25,936 bases of DNA from a virus (IMGVR_UViG_2778261639_000014:1-25936); one strand, 5' to 3'. Positions 8,398-15,830 are shown, counted from the stretch's first letter. Translations and numbers: made by a program. Notes: generated by a model from the sequence alone, not told the origin.

Positions 8398-10125
8398 TTG
8401 TGTTTAAGGAAGAGTAAATTGAGTAACTTACGCGAATACCAGAATCGTATTGCAGATATCGCAAAACGCTCTAAAGCTGTGCTTGGCTGGGCAAGCACTG
8501 CGCAGTTCGGTACTGATAACCAATTCATTAAAGATGATGCCGCGCGTGCCGCATCTATCCTTGAAGCTGCACGTAAAGACCCGGTTTTTGCGGGTATCTC
8601 TGATAATGCCACCGCTCAAATCGCTACAGCGTGGGCAAGTGCACTGGCTGACTACGCCGCAGCACATAAATCTATGCCGCGTCCGGAAATTCTGGCCTCC
8701 TGCCACCAGACGCTGGAAAACTGCCTGATTGAGTCCACCCGCAACAGCATGGATGCCACTAATAAAGCGATGCTGGAATCCGTCGCAGCAGAGATGATGA
8801 GCGTTTCTGACGGTGTTATGCGTCTGCCTTTATTCCTCGCGATGATCCTGCCTGTTCAGTTGGGGGCAGCTACCGCTGATGCGTGTACCTTCATTCCGGT
8901 TACGCGTGACCAGTCCGACATCTATGAAGTCTTTAACGTGGCAGGTTCCTCTTTTGGTTCTTATGCTGCTGGTGATGTTCTGGACATGCAATCCGTCGGT
9001 GTGTACAGCCAGTTACGCCGCCGCTATGTGCTGGTGGCAAGCTCCGATGGCACCAGCAAAACCGCAACCTTCAAGATGGAAGACTTCGAAGGCCAGAATG
9101 TACCAATCCGAAAAGGTCGCACTAACATCTACGTTAACCGTATTAAGTCTGTTGTTGATAACGGTTCCGGCAGCCTACTTCACTCGTTTACTAATGCTGC
9201 TGGTGAGCAAATCACTGTTACTTGCTCTCTGAACTACAACATTGGTCAGATTGCCCTGTCGTTCTCCAAAGCGCCGGATAAAGGCACTGAGATCGCAATT
9301 GAGACGGAAATCAATATTGAAGCCGCTCCTGAGCTGATCCCGCTGATCAACCACGAAATGAAGAAATACACCCTGTTCCCAAGCCAGTTCGTTATCGCGG
9401 CTGAGCACACGGTACAGGCGGCGTATGAAGCACAGCGTGAATTTGGTCTGGACCTGGGTTCCCTACAGTTCCGCACCCTGAAAGAATACCTGTCCCATGA
9501 ACAGGATATGTTGCGTCTCCGCATCATGATCTGGCGTACTCTTGCGACCGACACCTTTGACATCGCTCTGCCGGTTAACCAGTCCTTTGATGTATGGGCA
9601 ACCATCATTCGTGGCAAATTCCAGACTGTATATCGCGACATTATTGAGCGCGTTAAATCTTCTGGTGCGATGGGGATGTTTGCTGGTGCTGATGCAGCAT
9701 CTTTCTTCAAACAGTTGCCGAAGGATTTCTTCCAGCCAGCCGAAGACTATATCCAGACTCCGTATGTTCACTACATCGGTACCCTGTTCGGTAACGTGAA
9801 AGTGTACGAAGTACCTGCTGGTATTTGTAAGAACTTAACGACAGAGAACATTCAGTTCAGCTCGATGGATGTGCTGTGCTACGTCCGTGATGAAAATCCG
9901 GGTAAAGCAGGCTTCGTGACTGGTGATGCTGTCCCGGCCATCCCGTTCCAGCATCCGACCACTCCGGCGCTGGTCAACCGTACCACGCTGTGGGGTTCGG
10001 CTATCAACGATATGCACCCACGCAACGGCGCTGATTACTTCACTCGTGTAACGCTGACAATGGCCAAAAAAGGCGGGCTTAACTTTATAAGCGGCGACAC
10101 GATTGATGCCGGTGACTCTGAGTAA
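8398..10125 (+). CDS. Structural protein in the position of P1 gene 23 (putative major head protein)
   Basis: Track start TTG 8398; better start TTG 8419 with AAGGAAG SD. ~568 aa with strong codon bias. First gene after parS behind a late promoter. Assigned by position and expression signature, not by a verified motif. Confidence 0.6.
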   Translation: MCLRKSKLSNLREYQNRIADIAKRSKAVLGWASTAQFGTDNQFIKDDAARAASILEAARKDPVFAGISDNATAQIATAWASALADYAAAHKSMPRPEILASCHQTLENCLIESTRNSMDATNKAMLESVAAEMMSVSDGVMRLPLFLAMILPVQLGAATADACTFIPVTRDQSDIYEVFNVAGSSFGSYAAGDVLDMQSVGVYSQLRRRYVLVASSDGTSKTATFKMEDFEGQNVPIRKGRTNIYVNRIKSVVDNGSGSLLHSFTNAAGEQITVTCSLNYNIGQIALSFSKAPDKGTEIAIETEINIEAAPELIPLINHEMKKYTLFPSQFVIAAEHTVQAAYEAQREFGLDLGSLQFRTLKEYLSHEQDMLRLRIMIWRTLATDTFDIALPVNQSFDVWATIIRGKFQTVYRDIIERVKSSGAMGMFAGADAASFFKQLPKDFFQPAEDYIQTPYVHYIGTLFGNVKVYEVPAGICKNLTTENIQFSSMDVLCYVRDENPGKAGFVTGDAVPAIPFQHPTTPALVNRTTLWGSAINDMHPRNGADYFTRVTLTMAKKGGLNFISGDTIDAGDSE

Positions 10126-10185: not shown

Positions 10186-11775
10186 ATGTCTCAATATTCA
10201 ATTCAACAGTCATTAGGTAATGCATCCGGCGTCGCTGTTAGCCCGATCAATGCCGATGCGACGTTATCTACCGGTGTTGCATTAAATAGCAGCTTGTGGG
10301 CTGGTATTGGCGTATTTGCGCGTGGCAAGCCGTTTACTGTTCTTGCGGTTACTGAGTCCAATTACGAAGATGTTCTCGGCGAACCGCTGAAGCCGTCTTC
10401 CGGCTCACAGTTCGAACCAATTCGCCATGTGTACGAAGCTATTCAGCAAACGTCTGGTTATGTTGTCCGTGCTGTTCCGGATGATGCGAAGTTCCCGATT
10501 ATTATGTTCGATGAATCAGGCGAACCGGCTTACAGTGCGTTGCCATACGGTTCTGAAATTGAACTTGATAGCGGCGAAGCCTTTGCTATCTACGTTGATG
10601 ATGGTGATCCGTGTATTTCACCTACCCGTGAGTTAACCATCGAAACGGCAACAGCGGACAGCGCAGGTAATGAACGCTTCCTCCTGAAACTGACCCAGAC
10701 GACTTCGCTCGGCGTGGTAACGACCCTGGAGACACACACTGTGTCTTTGGCGGAAGAAGCAAAAGATGACATGGGCCGCTTGTGTTATCTGCCTACGGCT
10801 CTGGAAGCCCGTTCTAAATATCTGCGCGCGGTTGTTAATGAAGAGCTGATTTCGACGGCGAAAGTAACAAATAAAAAATCGCTGGCGTTCACTGGCGGTA
10901 CCAACGGCGATCAGTCGAACATTTCCACTGCTGCTTACCTGCGCGCGGTGAAAGTGCTGAACAATGCGCCGTACATGTACACCGCTGTTCTCGGCCTGGG
11001 TTGCTATGACAATGCGGCGATCACTGCGTTAGGTAATATCTGTTCTGATCGCTTGATTGATGGCTTCTTTGATGTCAAACCGACATTGACGTACACGGAA
11101 GCGATCTCTGCTGTTGAAGATACCGGTTTACTTGGTACCGATTATGTAAGCTGTGCTGTCTATCATTTCCCGTTCTCCTGCAAAGACAAATGGACCCAAT
11201 CCCGCGTGGTCTTCGGTCTGTCTGGCGCGGCGTATGCGGCGAAAGCTCGTGGCGTCAAGAAAAACTCCGATGTCGGCGGTTGGCATTACTCACCGGCTGG
11301 TGAAGAACGTGCCGTCATTGCTCGTGCATCACTTCAACCGCTGTATCCGGAAGACACCCCGGACGAAGAAGCTATGGTCAAGGGCCGACTCAATAAAGTA
11401 TCTGTAGGTACTTCGGGCCAGATGATCATCGATGATGCTTTAACTTGCTGCACGCAGGACAACTATCTGCATTTCCAGCACGTCCCATCCCTGATGAATG
11501 CAATCAGCCGTTTCTTTGTCCAGTTAGCCCGACAGATGAAGCATAACCCGGACGGCATTACTGAGTCTGGCCTGACTAAAGGGATGACCAAACTTTTGGA
11601 TCGCTTTGTCGCCTCCGGCGCTCTGGTGGCTCCTCGTGATCCTGATGCTGACGGTACAGAACCGTATGTGCTGAAAGTTACGCAGGCGGAATTCGATAAA
11701 TGGGAAGTAGTCTGGGCCTGCTGCCCGACTGGCGTAGCCCGTCGTATCCAGGGCGTACCGCTGCTTATTAAGTAA
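10186..11775 (+). CDS. Contractile tail sheath protein (putative, P1 gene 22-like)
   Basis: 529 aa. Contains GGWHYSPAG, resembling the G-x-W-x-x-P-A-G motif I associate with sheath proteins. Size fits a ~57 kDa sheath. Confidence 0.65.
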   Translation: MSQYSIQQSLGNASGVAVSPINADATLSTGVALNSSLWAGIGVFARGKPFTVLAVTESNYEDVLGEPLKPSSGSQFEPIRHVYEAIQQTSGYVVRAVPDDAKFPIIMFDESGEPAYSALPYGSEIELDSGEAFAIYVDDGDPCISPTRELTIETATADSAGNERFLLKLTQTTSLGVVTTLETHTVSLAEEAKDDMGRLCYLPTALEARSKYLRAVVNEELISTAKVTNKKSLAFTGGTNGDQSNISTAAYLRAVKVLNNAPYMYTAVLGLGCYDNAAITALGNICSDRLIDGFFDVKPTLTYTEAISAVEDTGLLGTDYVSCAVYHFPFSCKDKWTQSRVVFGLSGAAYAAKARGVKKNSDVGGWHYSPAGEERAVIARASLQPLYPEDTPDEEAMVKGRLNKVSVGTSGQMIIDDALTCCTQDNYLHFQHVPSLMNAISRFFVQLARQMKHNPDGITESGLTKGMTKLLDRFVASGALVAPRDPDADGTEPYVLKVTQAEFDKWEVVWACCPTGVARRIQGVPLLIK

Positions 11776-11784
11776 GGAAATACA

Positions 11785-12600
11785 ATGAGCAAAAACTTTT
11801 TTCAATCCGGGGCATTTTTGGGGAATGGACTGTCCCGTTTCGCTTTGAACTCTGATCCTGTGCAGCTGATGGAGTCTGCCCGAGCAAGCGCTGAACCGCC
11901 AACAGATCCGGTTATTAATAATAATCCGGAACCGGCGGCACAGACTAACGATAACGTTCCATCTGCCCCGGCTCCTGAGCAAATCCTGGAAGGGAAAGAC
12001 GGTAAAGAATGGACCGTCGAACAGGCGCACCAGATGATTCTGGAAGCTGCAAATCGAAGTGCTATGCAGAATGCGTTGAGTGATGCGGCCGACGCCGTTT
12101 TCGCCTGGGCTGATAGCGGTGATCTGACTTTCGACTCCCTTGATGGTTTCGTTCAGGCTATCGCTGGTATCTCTGATGACGACGACTCCGAAGTTACAGA
12201 AGAACAGGACGATGCCTATAACGAAGCATGGGCAAATGTTGCTGACTTCCTCGCAGCATGCGGTGTAGATGATGACCTGATCGAAGCACTGGCTGACGAT
12301 GAAGACGACGACGCAGCTGCTGATGTTGGTGCCTCTATCGCTGGTTTAGATAGCGACGACCGCGACGAACTGGAAGCGGCGTTTGTTGTTGCTGGCACTT
12401 CTGATGAAATGCTGACTGAAGCATTTAAGAAGGTTGTTCGTAATGGTGAGATCAAACTCATCCGTAAACGCCTGCGTAAAAAACGTCTGACTGCGGCTCA
12501 AAAATCGGCGCTGAAAAAAGCGCGTCGAAAAGCCCAGACCGGCGCGGCAAAACTTGCCCGCAAAAAGTCAATGAAACTGCGCCGTAAGCGCCTTGGCTAA
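11785..12600 (+). CDS. Charge-segregated protein (acidic body, basic C-terminal tail)
   Basis: 271 aa with AAGGAAA SD. Long D/E-rich stretches (DDDDSEVTEEQDD, DDEDDDAAADV) and a K/R-rich final ~50 aa (KRLRKKRLTAAQKSALKKARRKAQTGAAKLARKKSMKLRRKRLG). No enzymatic motif. Confidence 0.6.
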   Translation: MSKNFFQSGAFLGNGLSRFALNSDPVQLMESARASAEPPTDPVINNNPEPAAQTNDNVPSAPAPEQILEGKDGKEWTVEQAHQMILEAANRSAMQNALSDAADAVFAWADSGDLTFDSLDGFVQAIAGISDDDDSEVTEEQDDAYNEAWANVADFLAACGVDDDLIEALADDEDDDAAADVGASIAGLDSDDRDELEAAFVVAGTSDEMLTEAFKKVVRNGEIKLIRKRLRKKRLTAAQKSALKKARRKAQTGAAKLARKKSMKLRRKRLG

Positions 12601-12635
12601 AGGAGGAGGCCGGAGAACTCCGGCCTTTAACTTGA

Positions 12636-13217
12636 ATGGCACCTATACCTTATGGGGTTTACAGCCAGGCTGACGGTGTATCGCCATTTCTGAAAGTTAC
12701 TTTAACGAACTCTCAGTACCAGGTTACCGGATATATCAGCCAGGGGGCAGCAATGAACATGGCCCAGAATTGGGAAGCGCCGTTTACCGGTATGTCCATG
12801 GGGTCTGTTGCTGGTGCTTTCAGTGGTTTTGCGCAGGTTGGTACTGAAACAACGTCGGTGGCCCGTTGGAACAGCTTAATGGTTTGGGAAGGGGGGACAC
12901 CGCCGACGTTCACGCTGCCCGTAACTTTCATTGCTTTGAACAATCCATTCATTGAAGTTTCAGGCGCTATCGCCGCGTTGACAGCCATGATTAGCCCGGA
13001 ACTAAAAGCGGCCAATGTTGGTGGTCGAATCCCGGAACGTGTGACGCTAAACATTGGTCGCCGGATCAACATCACCGATGTCGCTATCCAGGACTTAAGT
13101 TTTGATCTCGATGCGCCAAGGGACAGTAATGGATATTTCCTGAAAAACACCGTCAACCTCCAGTTGACCGGTTCTTCGATATATAACAGCTCCGATATTG
13201 TTCGGGCGTTCCAGTAA
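12636..13217 (+). CDS. Hypothetical late-operon protein (tail component candidate)
   Basis: 193-aa ORF preceded by a GGCCGGAG/CTCCGGCC hairpin. Gly/Ala/Thr-rich. No diagnostic motif. Confidence 0.5.
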   Translation: MAPIPYGVYSQADGVSPFLKVTLTNSQYQVTGYISQGAAMNMAQNWEAPFTGMSMGSVAGAFSGFAQVGTETTSVARWNSLMVWEGGTPPTFTLPVTFIALNNPFIEVSGAIAALTAMISPELKAANVGGRIPERVTLNIGRRINITDVAIQDLSFDLDAPRDSNGYFLKNTVNLQLTGSSIYNSSDIVRAFQ

Positions 13218-13228
13218 AAGGATTTTAT

Positions 13229-13738
13229 ATGGGGCACAATAACACTAAGGGAAACCGTAAATTTATTAAGGGCCGCTATACTGCCAACGCGGCCAAAGGC
13301 GAACGACTGGTATCTTCTGAATTCCAGCTCACTTTTGCAGGCCATGAAGATATCAGCGTACTGGTTCGCACGTCGCAAATTCCTGAAATGACCCGCGAGG
13401 ATGTGGAGGACTATGGTCCGAATGGTGTGAAGTTCAACCAGCACGGTCCAATTCGAAACTCTGGGGAAATCCAGGTCCAGTGCGTGGAGACTATCGAAGG
13501 CGATATTCTTCAGTTCATTAAGGATCGCATTGCGGCGAAGGACTATGTTGATATCACGATGGCTGCGACCCCTGAATCCAAATCTTCCGGGGTTAACGCT
13601 GTGACTAAAGCTGCTACAACAATTGAAATGTTGGACTGCAAAATCTACAGTGATGCAATCGACTTTAGTACCGAAGATGTGACTGCCGCTGTGCGCCCGT
13701 CACTTCGTATCGTCTACAACTGGATTGATTGGGATTAA
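13229..13738 (+). CDS. Tail tube protein candidate
   Basis: 169 aa with AAAGGA SD. Last gene of the sheath-containing operon, followed by a strong terminator. Size fits a myovirus tube protein; assigned by size and position only. Confidence 0.45.
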   Translation: MGHNNTKGNRKFIKGRYTANAAKGERLVSSEFQLTFAGHEDISVLVRTSQIPEMTREDVEDYGPNGVKFNQHGPIRNSGEIQVQCVETIEGDILQFIKDRIAAKDYVDITMAATPESKSSGVNAVTKAATTIEMLDCKIYSDAIDFSTEDVTAAVRPSLRIVYNWIDWD

Positions 13739-13757: not shown

Positions 13758-13782
13758 AAAGCTCCTTCGGGAGCTTTTTTTA
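13758..13782 (+). terminator. Rho-independent terminator of the late structural operon
   Basis: AAAGCTCC-TTCG-GGAGCTTT hairpin followed by T7, 20 nt after the stop codon. Confidence 0.85.
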
Positions 13783-13909
13783 TAACTATTTTATATAAAA
13801 ATGCATCGATAACATTGTCTGGAGTTTTATGTTAGATTATTAATGTTCTAATAAACTACAATTATTGCGGTAGATGTTTGTGCCTGTACTGTTAAAGGGG
13901 GACTCTAAA

Positions 13910-14506
13910 ATGGCTGTGATTCCAATGTCGTACTCCCCGGGTACTGTCGCTCGTCGATTTTCGATCCTGGACGGAGTTACCATCCAGGGTGTGCTTTACC
14001 AGGTTATATGGGATTCCAAAACCCCATTTGCAGCTGTAATAGAGGCTGCGCCTTCTGTTATCGATGGTGATATGCGGCATAAGGTTGTCGCTACTCTTGA
14101 ACTTCAACGTCGCCCGCAGCTTGAAGGCGTACTGGTAAGGAAGTTCTGGGAGGATAGCGATGTTGGCCAGATTGAAGGTATCGTGGTTGATGGAACTGTC
14201 CGGGATGTCGGTTTAGCTACTTTTGTTTACGAAACCGTAGCCTCAAAAGCTGGTGTTGTTTTGCTCAGTGATAATGAGCAATACGAAGGTGGAAAAGCTC
14301 TTTGGCAACATATCGCCCGTCGCTCTTCCGAGCTAAAAGTGTTTATCCTCGACACCGATGCTGCTCAGTATTACCCGTTTGACGGCGAACGTGTTTGCTA
14401 TGACGGGAAAAGTATTCCTGAATCCGAGATATGGAGTGAACATCCGGATCGAAGTAAGCATGGGGTTGTTCTTGTCGCAGAATCCATAACTGGAAAGGCG
14501 GCATAG
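13910..14506 (+). CDS. Hypothetical protein (orphan gene with its own promoter)
   Basis: Track ORF 13874..14506; ATG 13910 preceded by AAAGGGGGA. 198 aa. Preceded by a ~100-bp AT-rich promoter-like region. No recognisable domain. Confidence 0.55.
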   Translation: MAVIPMSYSPGTVARRFSILDGVTIQGVLYQVIWDSKTPFAAVIEAAPSVIDGDMRHKVVATLELQRRPQLEGVLVRKFWEDSDVGQIEGIVVDGTVRDVGLATFVYETVASKAGVVLLSDNEQYEGGKALWQHIARRSSELKVFILDTDAAQYYPFDGERVCYDGKSIPESEIWSEHPDRSKHGVVLVAESITGKAA

Positions 14507-14688
14507 CAGTAAAAAATTCCTTGCTCCTTAAAAGGGGAGAGGGTTAATCTACGTATGCTAAGCATAGGTATGGCCCCGGTTAATGTTAAGCGTTGTGCGG
14601 GACGCATAATGTTTACTGGGGCTTTCTTCTATCTGCTTTTCGGGGAATGCCTGAAGCAGATAGCCTCAAGCACACCGCAGCGGGTGTA

Positions 14689-14934
14689 TCAATGTCTGGC
14701 TTTTTTTCTATAGAAATCACCTGGAAGGGTGAATATCCACATCAGAAGAAATGTTGCAGCAAACATGATCCCTAATGGCCAGACCGCGCCAAAGAAAATC
14801 CATACTAAGATCTCCTCTGCTCGTTCTTTGCGGTCGATATCGACAAGCATTTTTCGGCTGATCATGTATACACAGAAGCCAATACAAACATATCCTGCAA
14901 AAGCGATCGCTAACTGTAAAAAATCAGATTGCAT
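14689..14934 (-). CDS. Small two-helix membrane protein
   Basis: Track ORF 14689..15015; ATG at 14934 preceded by GAGG. 81 aa with two hydrophobic helices (LQLAIAFAGYVCIGFCVYMI; ILVWIFFGAVWPLGIMFAATFLLMWIF) and a basic C terminus. Confidence 0.5.
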   Translation of the reverse strand: MQSDFLQLAIAFAGYVCIGFCVYMISRKMLVDIDRKERAEEILVWIFFGAVWPLGIMFAATFLLMWIFTLPGDFYRKKARH

Positions 14935-14964
14935 CTCCGACCTCAAACTGAAAACGCCAGGTGA

Positions 14965-14981
14965 CTCCAGATTAGAGCAAT
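14965..14981. promoter_or_regulatory. C1 operator-like site between repL and the small membrane-protein gene
   Basis: Core ATTAGAGCAAT (14971-14981) matches the conserved half of the C1 operator; the upstream half is degenerate. Lies 4 bp below the repL stop and ~35 bp upstream of the membrane-protein start. Confidence 0.45.
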
Positions 14982-14984
14982 CTA

Positions 14985-15830
14985 TCACCCTCTGAATCCT
15001 GCCGGTATACCCCATTGTTCGTTATCTTTATTTTTGGCTAAAACCGCATTAAGAGCTTCGTTTACCGTCATGCAATGCGGCAGATTATCGAAGTTTGATA
15101 CCCCGCCAATATCAGGAGAACGCTTGTTCTTCAGGTAAGCATATTTCCGCGCTGCCGCCTCTACTTTCTGCTTGAACTCATGTTTTTGAGCGCGTTTTTT
15201 GGATAACCGCAGATTGTCAGCCTTTGCTTTTGCCTCAGCGATCCATGAAGTCAATTTTTTGAGTCTGGTCGTTCCGGCACCGCCGGAAACTGATCTTTTT
15301 GTTTTTTTAACTTGTGACTTCTTATTCTTTATTGCCACGTCATCCTGACAGGGGGAGGGGGTATCATTTTGACATGGGGGTGTGGATAAAAAATTAAATA
15401 AAGCCAATGTCTTAGCGAGAACAGCTTTAACCTTGGTTGCCGCTGAAGAGATCTTTAATTTGCTTTCAATCAGCGCATTTTTGGCTTGTTGTGCGAAGGC
15501 CAAAAAGGATGGTGTAAACCGGTACAGGTTAGCGCGACGTTCATGGTGATCGCCGATAACAATCTCTACAGACAGAATTCCTTTGTTTACAGCTTCACGG
15601 AATGCACGAACGACGGTTGATTGGCTATAACCAGTTTCTGCCGCGATCAGGCGGTGAGGCTTGTGAATGAAGTATTCACTAGTTGTTGCCGCGAGATTTG
15701 CACATTGCGACAGGATATGCCCGGCGCTACGGGATAGACCGGAGTGTGTTACAAAGCAGGCCAATTCATAGCCAGAAAAAGTAAAATCGCTCATCGTTAT
15801 ACAGCTCAGGAAAGTGACTTTAGCCAGCAT
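14985..15830 (-). CDS. repL: Lytic replication protein RepL
   Basis: 281 aa from the track start; internal ATG at 15794 is an alternative. Matches P1 RepL as recalled (MSDFTFSGYELACFVTHSGLSRSAGHILSQ). Directly downstream of kilA as in the P1 kilA-repL operon. Confidence 0.8.
   Translation of the reverse strand: MLAKVTFLSCITMSDFTFSGYELACFVTHSGLSRSAGHILSQCANLAATTSEYFIHKPHRLIAAETGYSQSTVVRAFREAVNKGILSVEIVIGDHHERRANLYRFTPSFLAFAQQAKNALIESKLKISSAATKVKAVLAKTLALFNFLSTPPCQNDTPSPCQDDVAIKNKKSQVKKTKRSVSGGAGTTRLKKLTSWIAEAKAKADNLRLSKKRAQKHEFKQKVEAAARKYAYLKNKRSPDIGGVSNFDNLPHCMTVNEALNAVLAKNKDNEQWGIPAGFRG

Follow-up and report, generated by a model that had tools for sequence, protein, structure and literature searches.

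In herpesviruses, the precursor pre-VP22a consists of a scaffold body followed by a short C-terminal element that binds the shell, and the scaffold is freed from this tail when assemblin, a homologue of the phage prohead proteases, cuts at the maturational 'M-site' immediately upstream. In bacteriophage P22, gp8 binds coat protein electrostatically through a basic C-terminal helix-turn-helix. T4 IPI-III and adenovirus pVII and pre-mu are basic precursors that are trimmed by the capsid protease in the immature particle and are DNA-associated afterwards. The T4 prohead core/scaffolding protein gp22 is, according to the T4 annotation, degraded in maturation and absent from virions. Acidic, non-virion proteins are also known from tail assembly: the genes of lambda gpG/gpGT and P2 gpE/E+E' stand among those of the tail, close to the tube gene, and one part of gpGT binds the tape measure while another binds the tube protein.

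According to recent proteomic and cryo-EM papers on this classic model phage, P1 lacks a separate scaffolding protein; the papers omit gene 21. The virion proteomics paper says that no P1 scaffold had been identified, and in the cryo-EM papers of 2023 and 2026 nearly every protein of head, neck, tail and baseplate is named, gp21 nowhere. Here we report that gp21 carries the motif of the P1 head protease at its domain borders, and we suggest, from sequence comparisons, that the gene 21 product is most likely a component of the immature head rather than a part of the tail.

The window (the whole stretch of 25,936 nucleotides that was analysed) derives from a P1-type phage-plasmid and runs in the orientation opposite to the standard P1 map; its features lie on the + strand unless stated. 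An ATG-started open reading frame at 11785..12600 encodes 271 amino acids plus a stop. P1 gene 21 (YP_006524.1) is 97.9% identical to it and the copy in phage JL22 is 100% identical; the protein was assigned to PHROG 1053 ('unknown function'), and GenBank annotates P1 gene 21 with the note 'baseplate or tail tube'. Net charge is -41 over residues 1-215 and +24 over residues 216-271, residues 211-270 contain 26 K/R and 2 D/E, and the cumulative-charge range of 44 compares with 20.1 +/- 2.2 (maximum 30, n=5000) for shuffles of the same composition. Translation and charge counts thus bear out the first-pass annotation, which had described a 271-aa protein with an acidic body and a ~50-residue K/R-rich tail, and its placement between sheath and tube genes is also right, with gene 22 on the 5' side and pmgG and bplB on the 3' side. 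Its interpretation survives in part: the protein was well described, and the gene was not recognised as P1 gene 21.

Gene 21 belongs to a late operon that starts from LP23, has the order 23-22-21-pmgG-bplB and ends at a terminator-like hairpin followed by a T-run (13758..13777). The P1 match at 8419..10125 is gene 23, whose product is the major capsid protein in its 568-aa form; the tail sheath gene 22 (10186..11775; PHROG 'tail sheath', E 1.6e-231) lies directly 5' of gene 21. Directly 3' of it, pmgG (12636..13217) encodes a tube-linking baseplate protein, and bplB (13229..13738), the final gene, encodes the tail tube protein, both assigned by P1 match and from cryo-EM work. That work describes BplB as the tail tube, PmgG as a tube-linking protein with a tube fold and Tub as the tube initiator, and the structure of P1 gp22 has been solved as well (PDB 8jaj and others).

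Two further features of this part of the window deserve mention. Sequence and folding reveal a 9-bp GC-rich hairpin (12607..12626) in the gap from the stop of gene 21 to the start of pmgG; it parts a Shine-Dalgarno-like AGGAGGAGG (12601-12609) from the pmgG ATG at 12636, which has no Shine-Dalgarno sequence of its own within 10 nt; the segment 12601-12638 has a fold energy of -24.8 kcal/mol (z = -2.9). This hairpin may draw the Shine-Dalgarno sequence near the start codon, or may lower translation of the low-copy PmgG after gene 21. Beyond the operon, positions 13874-15015 depart from the P1 reference: a 210-aa reading frame (phrog_7522, with a weak GNAT-like match) takes the place of the 98-aa pmgF, rlfA and rlfB are absent, and a 108-aa minus-strand reading frame precedes repL.

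The place of gene 21 is largely fixed across its family. In distant prophages, whose capsid protein is about 30% identical to that of P1, the order is 23-(small gene)-22-21-pmgG-bplB-pmgC-tub-pmgB-sit, and among 166 loci the gene 21 homologue starts at most 150 nt from the sheath stop in 154/158 cases and is followed by pmgG within 150 nt in 157/161. There are exceptions. In one locus (L008) the homologue stands two genes from a homologue of the Pro protease domain, with no tail genes within 18 kb, and in three others (L110, L114 and L123) a DarB-like gene, not the sheath gene, precedes it.

These exceptional loci have features of their own. In L008 (6238-8962) the gp21 homologue has 351 aa with four extra N-terminal 'FES' motifs, and the stand-alone protease-domain homologue has 177 aa; the 18-kb context holds integrase, Rep3, ParDE and Ldr-type toxin genes, without tail or capsid genes, and gave no match in the plasmid collection. 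L008 may be a satellite-like element carrying head-remodelling genes. In L114 (247-8535), as in L110 and L123, a gene for a 2046-aa DarB-like N6-methylase/helicase and a 122-aa reading frame lie 5' of the homologue, and a pmgG-like gene still lies 3' of it.

A word-indexed search found 85 relatives of gp21, mostly on contigs of 80-100 kb, and an exhaustive profile search (E<=0.001) extended the family to 604 clusters at 50% identity, whose members are currently labelled 'unknown' or mislabelled 'tail tube protein'. With charge segregation defined as a body of net charge -15 or lower and a net charge of at least +12 over the last 58 residues, 209/218 relatives of at least 170 aa show the pattern, and the nine exceptions are fragments or chimeras. 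Because so many relatives share it, charge segregation is a trait of the gp21 family and not a chance feature of one sequence. The best-conserved part is the basic C-terminal module, with the consensus KVVRxGKVxxxxKRxxKxxxSxAQKxALKKARRKAHTxxAxxxRxKSMKxRKxRGL. Three homologues (P0188, P0214 and P0216) have two such modules, each with an acidic stretch before it and bracketed by the cut-site motif described below, a polyprotein-like layout.

Searches of Pfam, NCBIfam and PDB sequences with gp21 alone, with a 25-member alignment and with its profile gave no match (no Pfam family at E<=1, and noise only in NCBIfam). A profile of the basic module alone recovered only fragments of this family, without any new architecture, and neither a fold match to the acidic helical domain nor a structural neighbour of the basic module was found.

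The AF2 model of gp21, with an overall pLDDT of 72, is built of four parts, beginning with an N-terminal region that is disordered and continuing with a confidently predicted helical domain at about residues 75-205 (pLDDT 81-91), a linker at residues 208-223 (pLDDT <50) and a C-terminal hairpin and helix. Folded alone, the basic module is predicted as a beta-hairpin and two helices with pLDDT 91. Alignment and model together divide the protein into an N-terminal peptide (residues 1-30, MSKNFFQSGAFLGNGLSRFALNSDPVQLME, 11785..11874), moderately conserved and of low pLDDT, which is a possible targeting or docking signal; a variable Pro/Ala-rich linker (residues 31-87, 11875..12045); the acidic helical domain (residues 88-212, 12046..12420; 13.0 kDa, net -35, pI about 4); and the basic module (residues 213-271, 12421..12597; 59 aa, 6.84 kDa, net +25, pI 12).

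The maturation cut of the P1 capsid protein, AMLE120↓SVAAEM, has been mapped by Edman sequencing (PMC9024508), and in the window it corresponds to M118-L119-E120↓S121 at 8770..8781. Its motif, (M/I/V)(L/F)(E/D)↓(S/A), is the same as that found on both flanks of the acidic helical domain of gp21. On the N side the predicted Pro site 1, L28-M29-E30↓S31 (11866..11877), coincides with an 'ESA' kept in the family consensus, and ILE87↓A88 (12037-12048) aligns with the sole N-flank site of shorter homologues; a further match, ILE69↓G70 (11983-11994), lies in the linker. The predicted C-flank site, L210-T211-E212↓A213 (12412..12423), stands directly before the basic module, and its E212 is kept in at least 90% of the family; in a second subfamily the equivalent residues 'DA' are invariant. 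The P3-P2' site profiles of the capsid protein and of gp21 are nearly the same, and the predicted sites sit in segments with pLDDT <50. Cutting at the motif sites would give products 1-30, 31-69, 70-87, 88-212 and 213-271.

When P1 proteins were scanned with the pattern [LIVMF][LIVMFYCT]E[SAG], gp21 gave five matches. In gp23 there are three, all within the 120 N-terminal residues that are removed and 0 in the mature 448 aa, and Pro has seven, including GMFE↓SAD at the end of its protease domain. DarA has two in 639 aa, both near the N-terminus, and there are none in Hdf, which is reported as unprocessed, in PmgG or in BplB. In DarA, the first residue that cryo-EM resolves comes one residue after the LLE68↓A69 match; the cryo-EM paper reports residues 1-69 as missing, without a precise site. 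The motif was not found in the N-terminal targeting signal of DarB and is therefore not a general capsid-targeting tag, an explanation we ruled out.

Two further observations concern the P1 proteins themselves. For P1 darA (L250, 4505-6424) the motif predicts the cut LLE68↓A69 and a possible second cut at MTE42↓S43. The prohead protease, P1 pro (L249, 515-1531), bears the label 'tail fiber protein' in both RefSeq and PHROG 1801, apparently in error; its C-terminal half (about residues 172-339), coiled-coil-like and with several of the cut-site motifs, might serve as a scaffold in its own right.

The residue before the cut is E in some genomes and D in others, and gp21 follows the capsid protein in this respect. 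With the Edman-mapped gp23 site as the reference column, 140 loci divide into 69 with E and 71 with D at the capsid site, and the gp21 C-flank residue is the same in 139/140 (capsid/gp21: E/E 69, D/D 70, D/E 1). The N-terminal motifs of gp21 track the same division: per protein there are 2.01 E-motifs and 0.01 D-motifs when the genome is E-type, and 0.04 and 1.05, respectively, when it is D-type. Pro homologues likewise contain E-motifs only or D-motifs only; P1 and its relatives have E at the boundary site, where the protease domain ends, and all five D-type genomes checked (L006 and four contig-matched genomes) have D there, so that the state of this site is concordant in 6/6 genomes.

Independence was assessed by parsimony on a neighbour-joining tree of the sheath from 88 dereplicated genomes. 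Four changes were counted at the capsid site and three at the gp21 site, the three D clades coinciding, which gives at least three independent E/D switches common to the two proteins; the test as a whole rests on about 3-4 evolutionary switches. The concordance of 87/88 on the tree was reached in at most 1/20,000 simulations with random placement of 3-6 changes. Sheath, PmgG and BplB, taken as a control for specificity, show no E/D switch, and the covariation can therefore not be put down to a genome-wide bias in E/D composition; the two genome types have similar overall contents of E and D. The gp21 motifs are thus conserved at domain borders, lie in predicted flexible linkers and covary in E/D state with the capsid and protease sites.

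Based on these observations, we suggest that gp21 is probably a substrate of Pro inside the prohead, a scaffold- or core-like pro-protein that releases a 59-aa, +25 module. A prohead protease substrate would therefore be located inside the prohead. According to this model, gp21 would be made in quantity from the late operon common to the capsid, sheath and tube proteins and be incorporated into the prohead, where its acidic block would neutralise the basic module. Pro would then cut it at (M/I/V)(L/F)E↓(S/A), that is at E30↓S31, E87↓A88 and E212↓A213 on both sides of the acidic domain, using the kind of site at which it would also remove the N-terminal 120 residues of gp23 and the N-terminus of DarA. 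Cleavage would part the acidic 13-kDa domain (net -35) from the conserved 59-aa module (net +25); the acidic domain may leave or be expelled during DNA entry, and the basic module may grip the shell from inside in the manner of scaffold C-terminal tails, or else remain with the packaged DNA.

The genomic evidence speaks on both sides. Gene 21 lies in the late operon of the capsid gene with the sheath gene between them, and the homologues near the Pro-domain gene in L008 and 3' of the DarB-like gene in L110, L114 and L123 favour a head function, DarB being a head-internal protein that P1 ejects from the head together with DarA. On the other hand, a fixed place between the sheath and tube-linking genes is unusual for a head gene, and with the 120-aa scaffolding-like N-terminal domain of gp23 and the coiled-coil-like half of Pro, an extra scaffold is not obviously needed. 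Homology of gp21 to scaffold families was found neither in Pfam nor in a comparison with T4 gp22 (hhalign probability 0.3%), and short motifs of this kind can serve for docking rather than cutting.

What is reported of the P1 virion is compatible with a protein that is lost, hard to see or present at low copy number. In the LC-MS/MS table of the virion, positions 54, 55, 57 and 58 are present and 56, which is gp21, is absent; all six Dar proteins were detected, and known low-copy proteins were missed as well. The body of gp21 has four well-sized tryptic peptides, none of them reported in virions, and since no tryptic peptide of the basic module is longer than 7 aa, the module would be invisible to tryptic mass spectrometry. 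No chain of gp21 is among the P1 structures in the PDB.

A variant of the same scheme, which we consider possible but less probable, is that gp21 is a polyprotein-like precursor whose true product is the 59-aa, +25 module itself, freed by Pro in the prohead, retained with the packaged DNA as a protamine-like peptide and ejected with it. The acidic domain would then be an in-chain neutralising propiece that blocks binding of the module to nucleic acid in the cytoplasm, and the module would have been missed on account of its tryptic pieces of at most 7 residues and of disorder in cryo-EM maps. The homologues with two modules and the predicted fold of the module on its own (pLDDT 91) are compatible with this variant.

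It is unlikely, in our estimation, that gp21 is instead a non-virion factor of tail assembly, acting as a chaperone for the baseplate hub, the tape measure or the tube. The tape measure Sit, whose N-terminal third is basic (a net charge of about +27 over residues 61-420), would be coated there by the acidic body of gp21. The basic tail of gp21 would bring in subunits of the tube, the lumen of which is reported as negative; this would amount to the job of lambda gpG/gpGT without a frameshift. The near-invariant slot between sheath and tube-linking genes and the absence of gp21 from the virion suit such a factor, as does the GenBank note. Against it, pmgB and not gene 21 lies directly upstream of the tape-measure gene sit, some homologues stand away from tail genes, beside the protease-domain gene or a DarB-like gene, and motifs that copy head protease sites and switch between E and D jointly with capsid and protease are left unexplained.

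Genetic data bear on this point as well. Walker and Walker (1983) reportedly classed gene 21 amber mutants as defective in baseplate or tail tube. This classical tail phenotype speaks against a head function for gp21; it could reflect polarity, or alleles misassigned to this reading frame instead of to pmgG or bplB, both of which encode tail proteins. CRISPRi scored gene 21 as essential, its authors stressing polar knockdown, and since the knockdown is polar on the essential downstream genes pmgG and bplB, the result is uninformative for gene 21.

The first-pass annotation had remarked that tail assembly does not obviously require this protein, and this fits, gp21 being unreported in the virion mass spectrometry table and in the tail and baseplate cryo-EM models. 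It had also named what would speak against its own reading, namely homology to a tail assembly chaperone together with a frameshift partner, and we looked for both and found neither: there is no such homology in Pfam, NCBIfam or PHROGs (25 diverse members were included in the Pfam search), the 3' half contains no X XXY YYZ heptamer, no alternative frame stays open beyond 55 codons, and a stop closes the pmgG frame 3 nt ahead of its ATG. Three roles had been put forward there, and 'assembly chaperone' comes nearest, though the data favour the head over the tail because gp21 carries covarying prohead protease sites; nothing positive supports a DNA mimic or an injected protein.

Two proposals about the tail, in which the basic end of gp21 would occupy the tube's negative lumen or make up for a tape measure that is 'too short', were set aside, charge being all that speaks for either. 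Tape measures usually span 1.5 Angstrom per residue, and the value for Sit is longer. The P1 protein (L005, 10989-14411) has 1140 aa, including a globular transglycosylase domain, and a tail tube reported at 53 rings of about 40 Angstrom gives about 1.9 Angstrom per Sit residue.

Improbable as well is a gp21 that is head-associated but neither scaffold nor cleaved precursor, acting as a regulator, pseudo-substrate or docking adaptor of Pro, for which the model would be T4 Inh, a minor protein of the head whose annotation makes it a T4 protease inhibitor. The same covariation data apply, because binding at the active site would impose the same dependence on E or D, and the stand-alone protease-domain gene near the L008 homologue can be read in this way. 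However, at least two sites fall exactly at domain borders in flexible linkers, and in the multi-module homologues each basic module is bracketed by sites, which looks like processing into pieces rather than a single inhibitory loop; expression from the most highly expressed late operon moreover suggests stoichiometric and not regulatory amounts.

Anti-defence genes are generally expected to be variable accessory genes. We regard it as very improbable that gp21 is an injected anti-defence protein whose acidic domain mimics DNA like Ocr or ArdA and is delivered with the genome. The domain is indeed extremely acidic (net -35 over 125 aa), and if gp21 is processed in the head it would share the compartment of the ejected DarA and DarB. 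Yet the gene is conserved and syntenic throughout in a core structural operon, and is expressed late, from LP23, and not at the start of infection. Pfam holds no Ocr or ArdA family match to it, no fold match was found, and its four normal-sized body peptides are unreported in virions in which all six Dar proteins were seen. A role as an RNA-binding regulator was set aside for want of support.

If gp21 is a head pro-protein, the textbook assignment of gene 21 to 'baseplate or tail tube' would be wrong, P1 head assembly would gain a missing player, and a family of at least 600 sequence clusters would receive a function; a literature search found no report of the head function proposed here. The E/D switch common to protease, capsid protein and gp21 is a natural experiment on the specificity of a prohead protease, and we propose E/D covariation as a general computational route to capsid-internal substrates in uncharacterised phages.

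Set beside the systems described at the outset, gp21 resembles the tail chaperones lambda gpG/gpGT and P2 gpE/E+E' in being acidic and apparently non-virion and in having its gene among those of the tail, close to that of the tube, but it has no homology to them, lacks a frameshift and does not adjoin the tape-measure gene, and those chaperones have no link to a head protease. With T4 IPI-III, pVII and pre-mu it would share a basic part trimmed out in the immature particle; their propeptides are short, whereas gp21 has a large acidic domain balancing the basic part in one chain, and its module is highly conserved whereas the T4 internal proteins evolve fast.

The C-terminal module is closer to the tails of pre-VP22a and P22 gp8, with two basic helices predicted at the end and a conserved putative cut site before it, although with 59 aa it is the longer one, carries a far higher basic charge (+25) and contains a beta-hairpin in addition, and its binding to gp23 is hypothetical. 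P22 gp8 is recycled and not cleaved, unlike what we propose for gp21.

In its overall plan gp21 recalls T4 gp22. The two differ in that homology is undetectable, that T4 gp22 is acidic throughout (net -28) without a basic tail, that its gene is flanked by the protease and capsid genes while gene 21 is flanked by those for sheath and tube-linking protein, and that the acidic part of gp21 is predicted by AF2 as a compact rather than an extended helical domain. They are alike in size (269 and 271 aa), in being acidic and helical, in carrying prohead protease sites of the form hydrophobic-x-E↓S/A (SIFE↓S, ELFE↓S and LTE↓S), and in accompanying a capsid protein that also loses an N-terminal propeptide. 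Gene 21 itself and the protease-processed head core or internal protein as a kind are known; the charge-block architecture of the pro-protein and the three-way E/D covariation are new.
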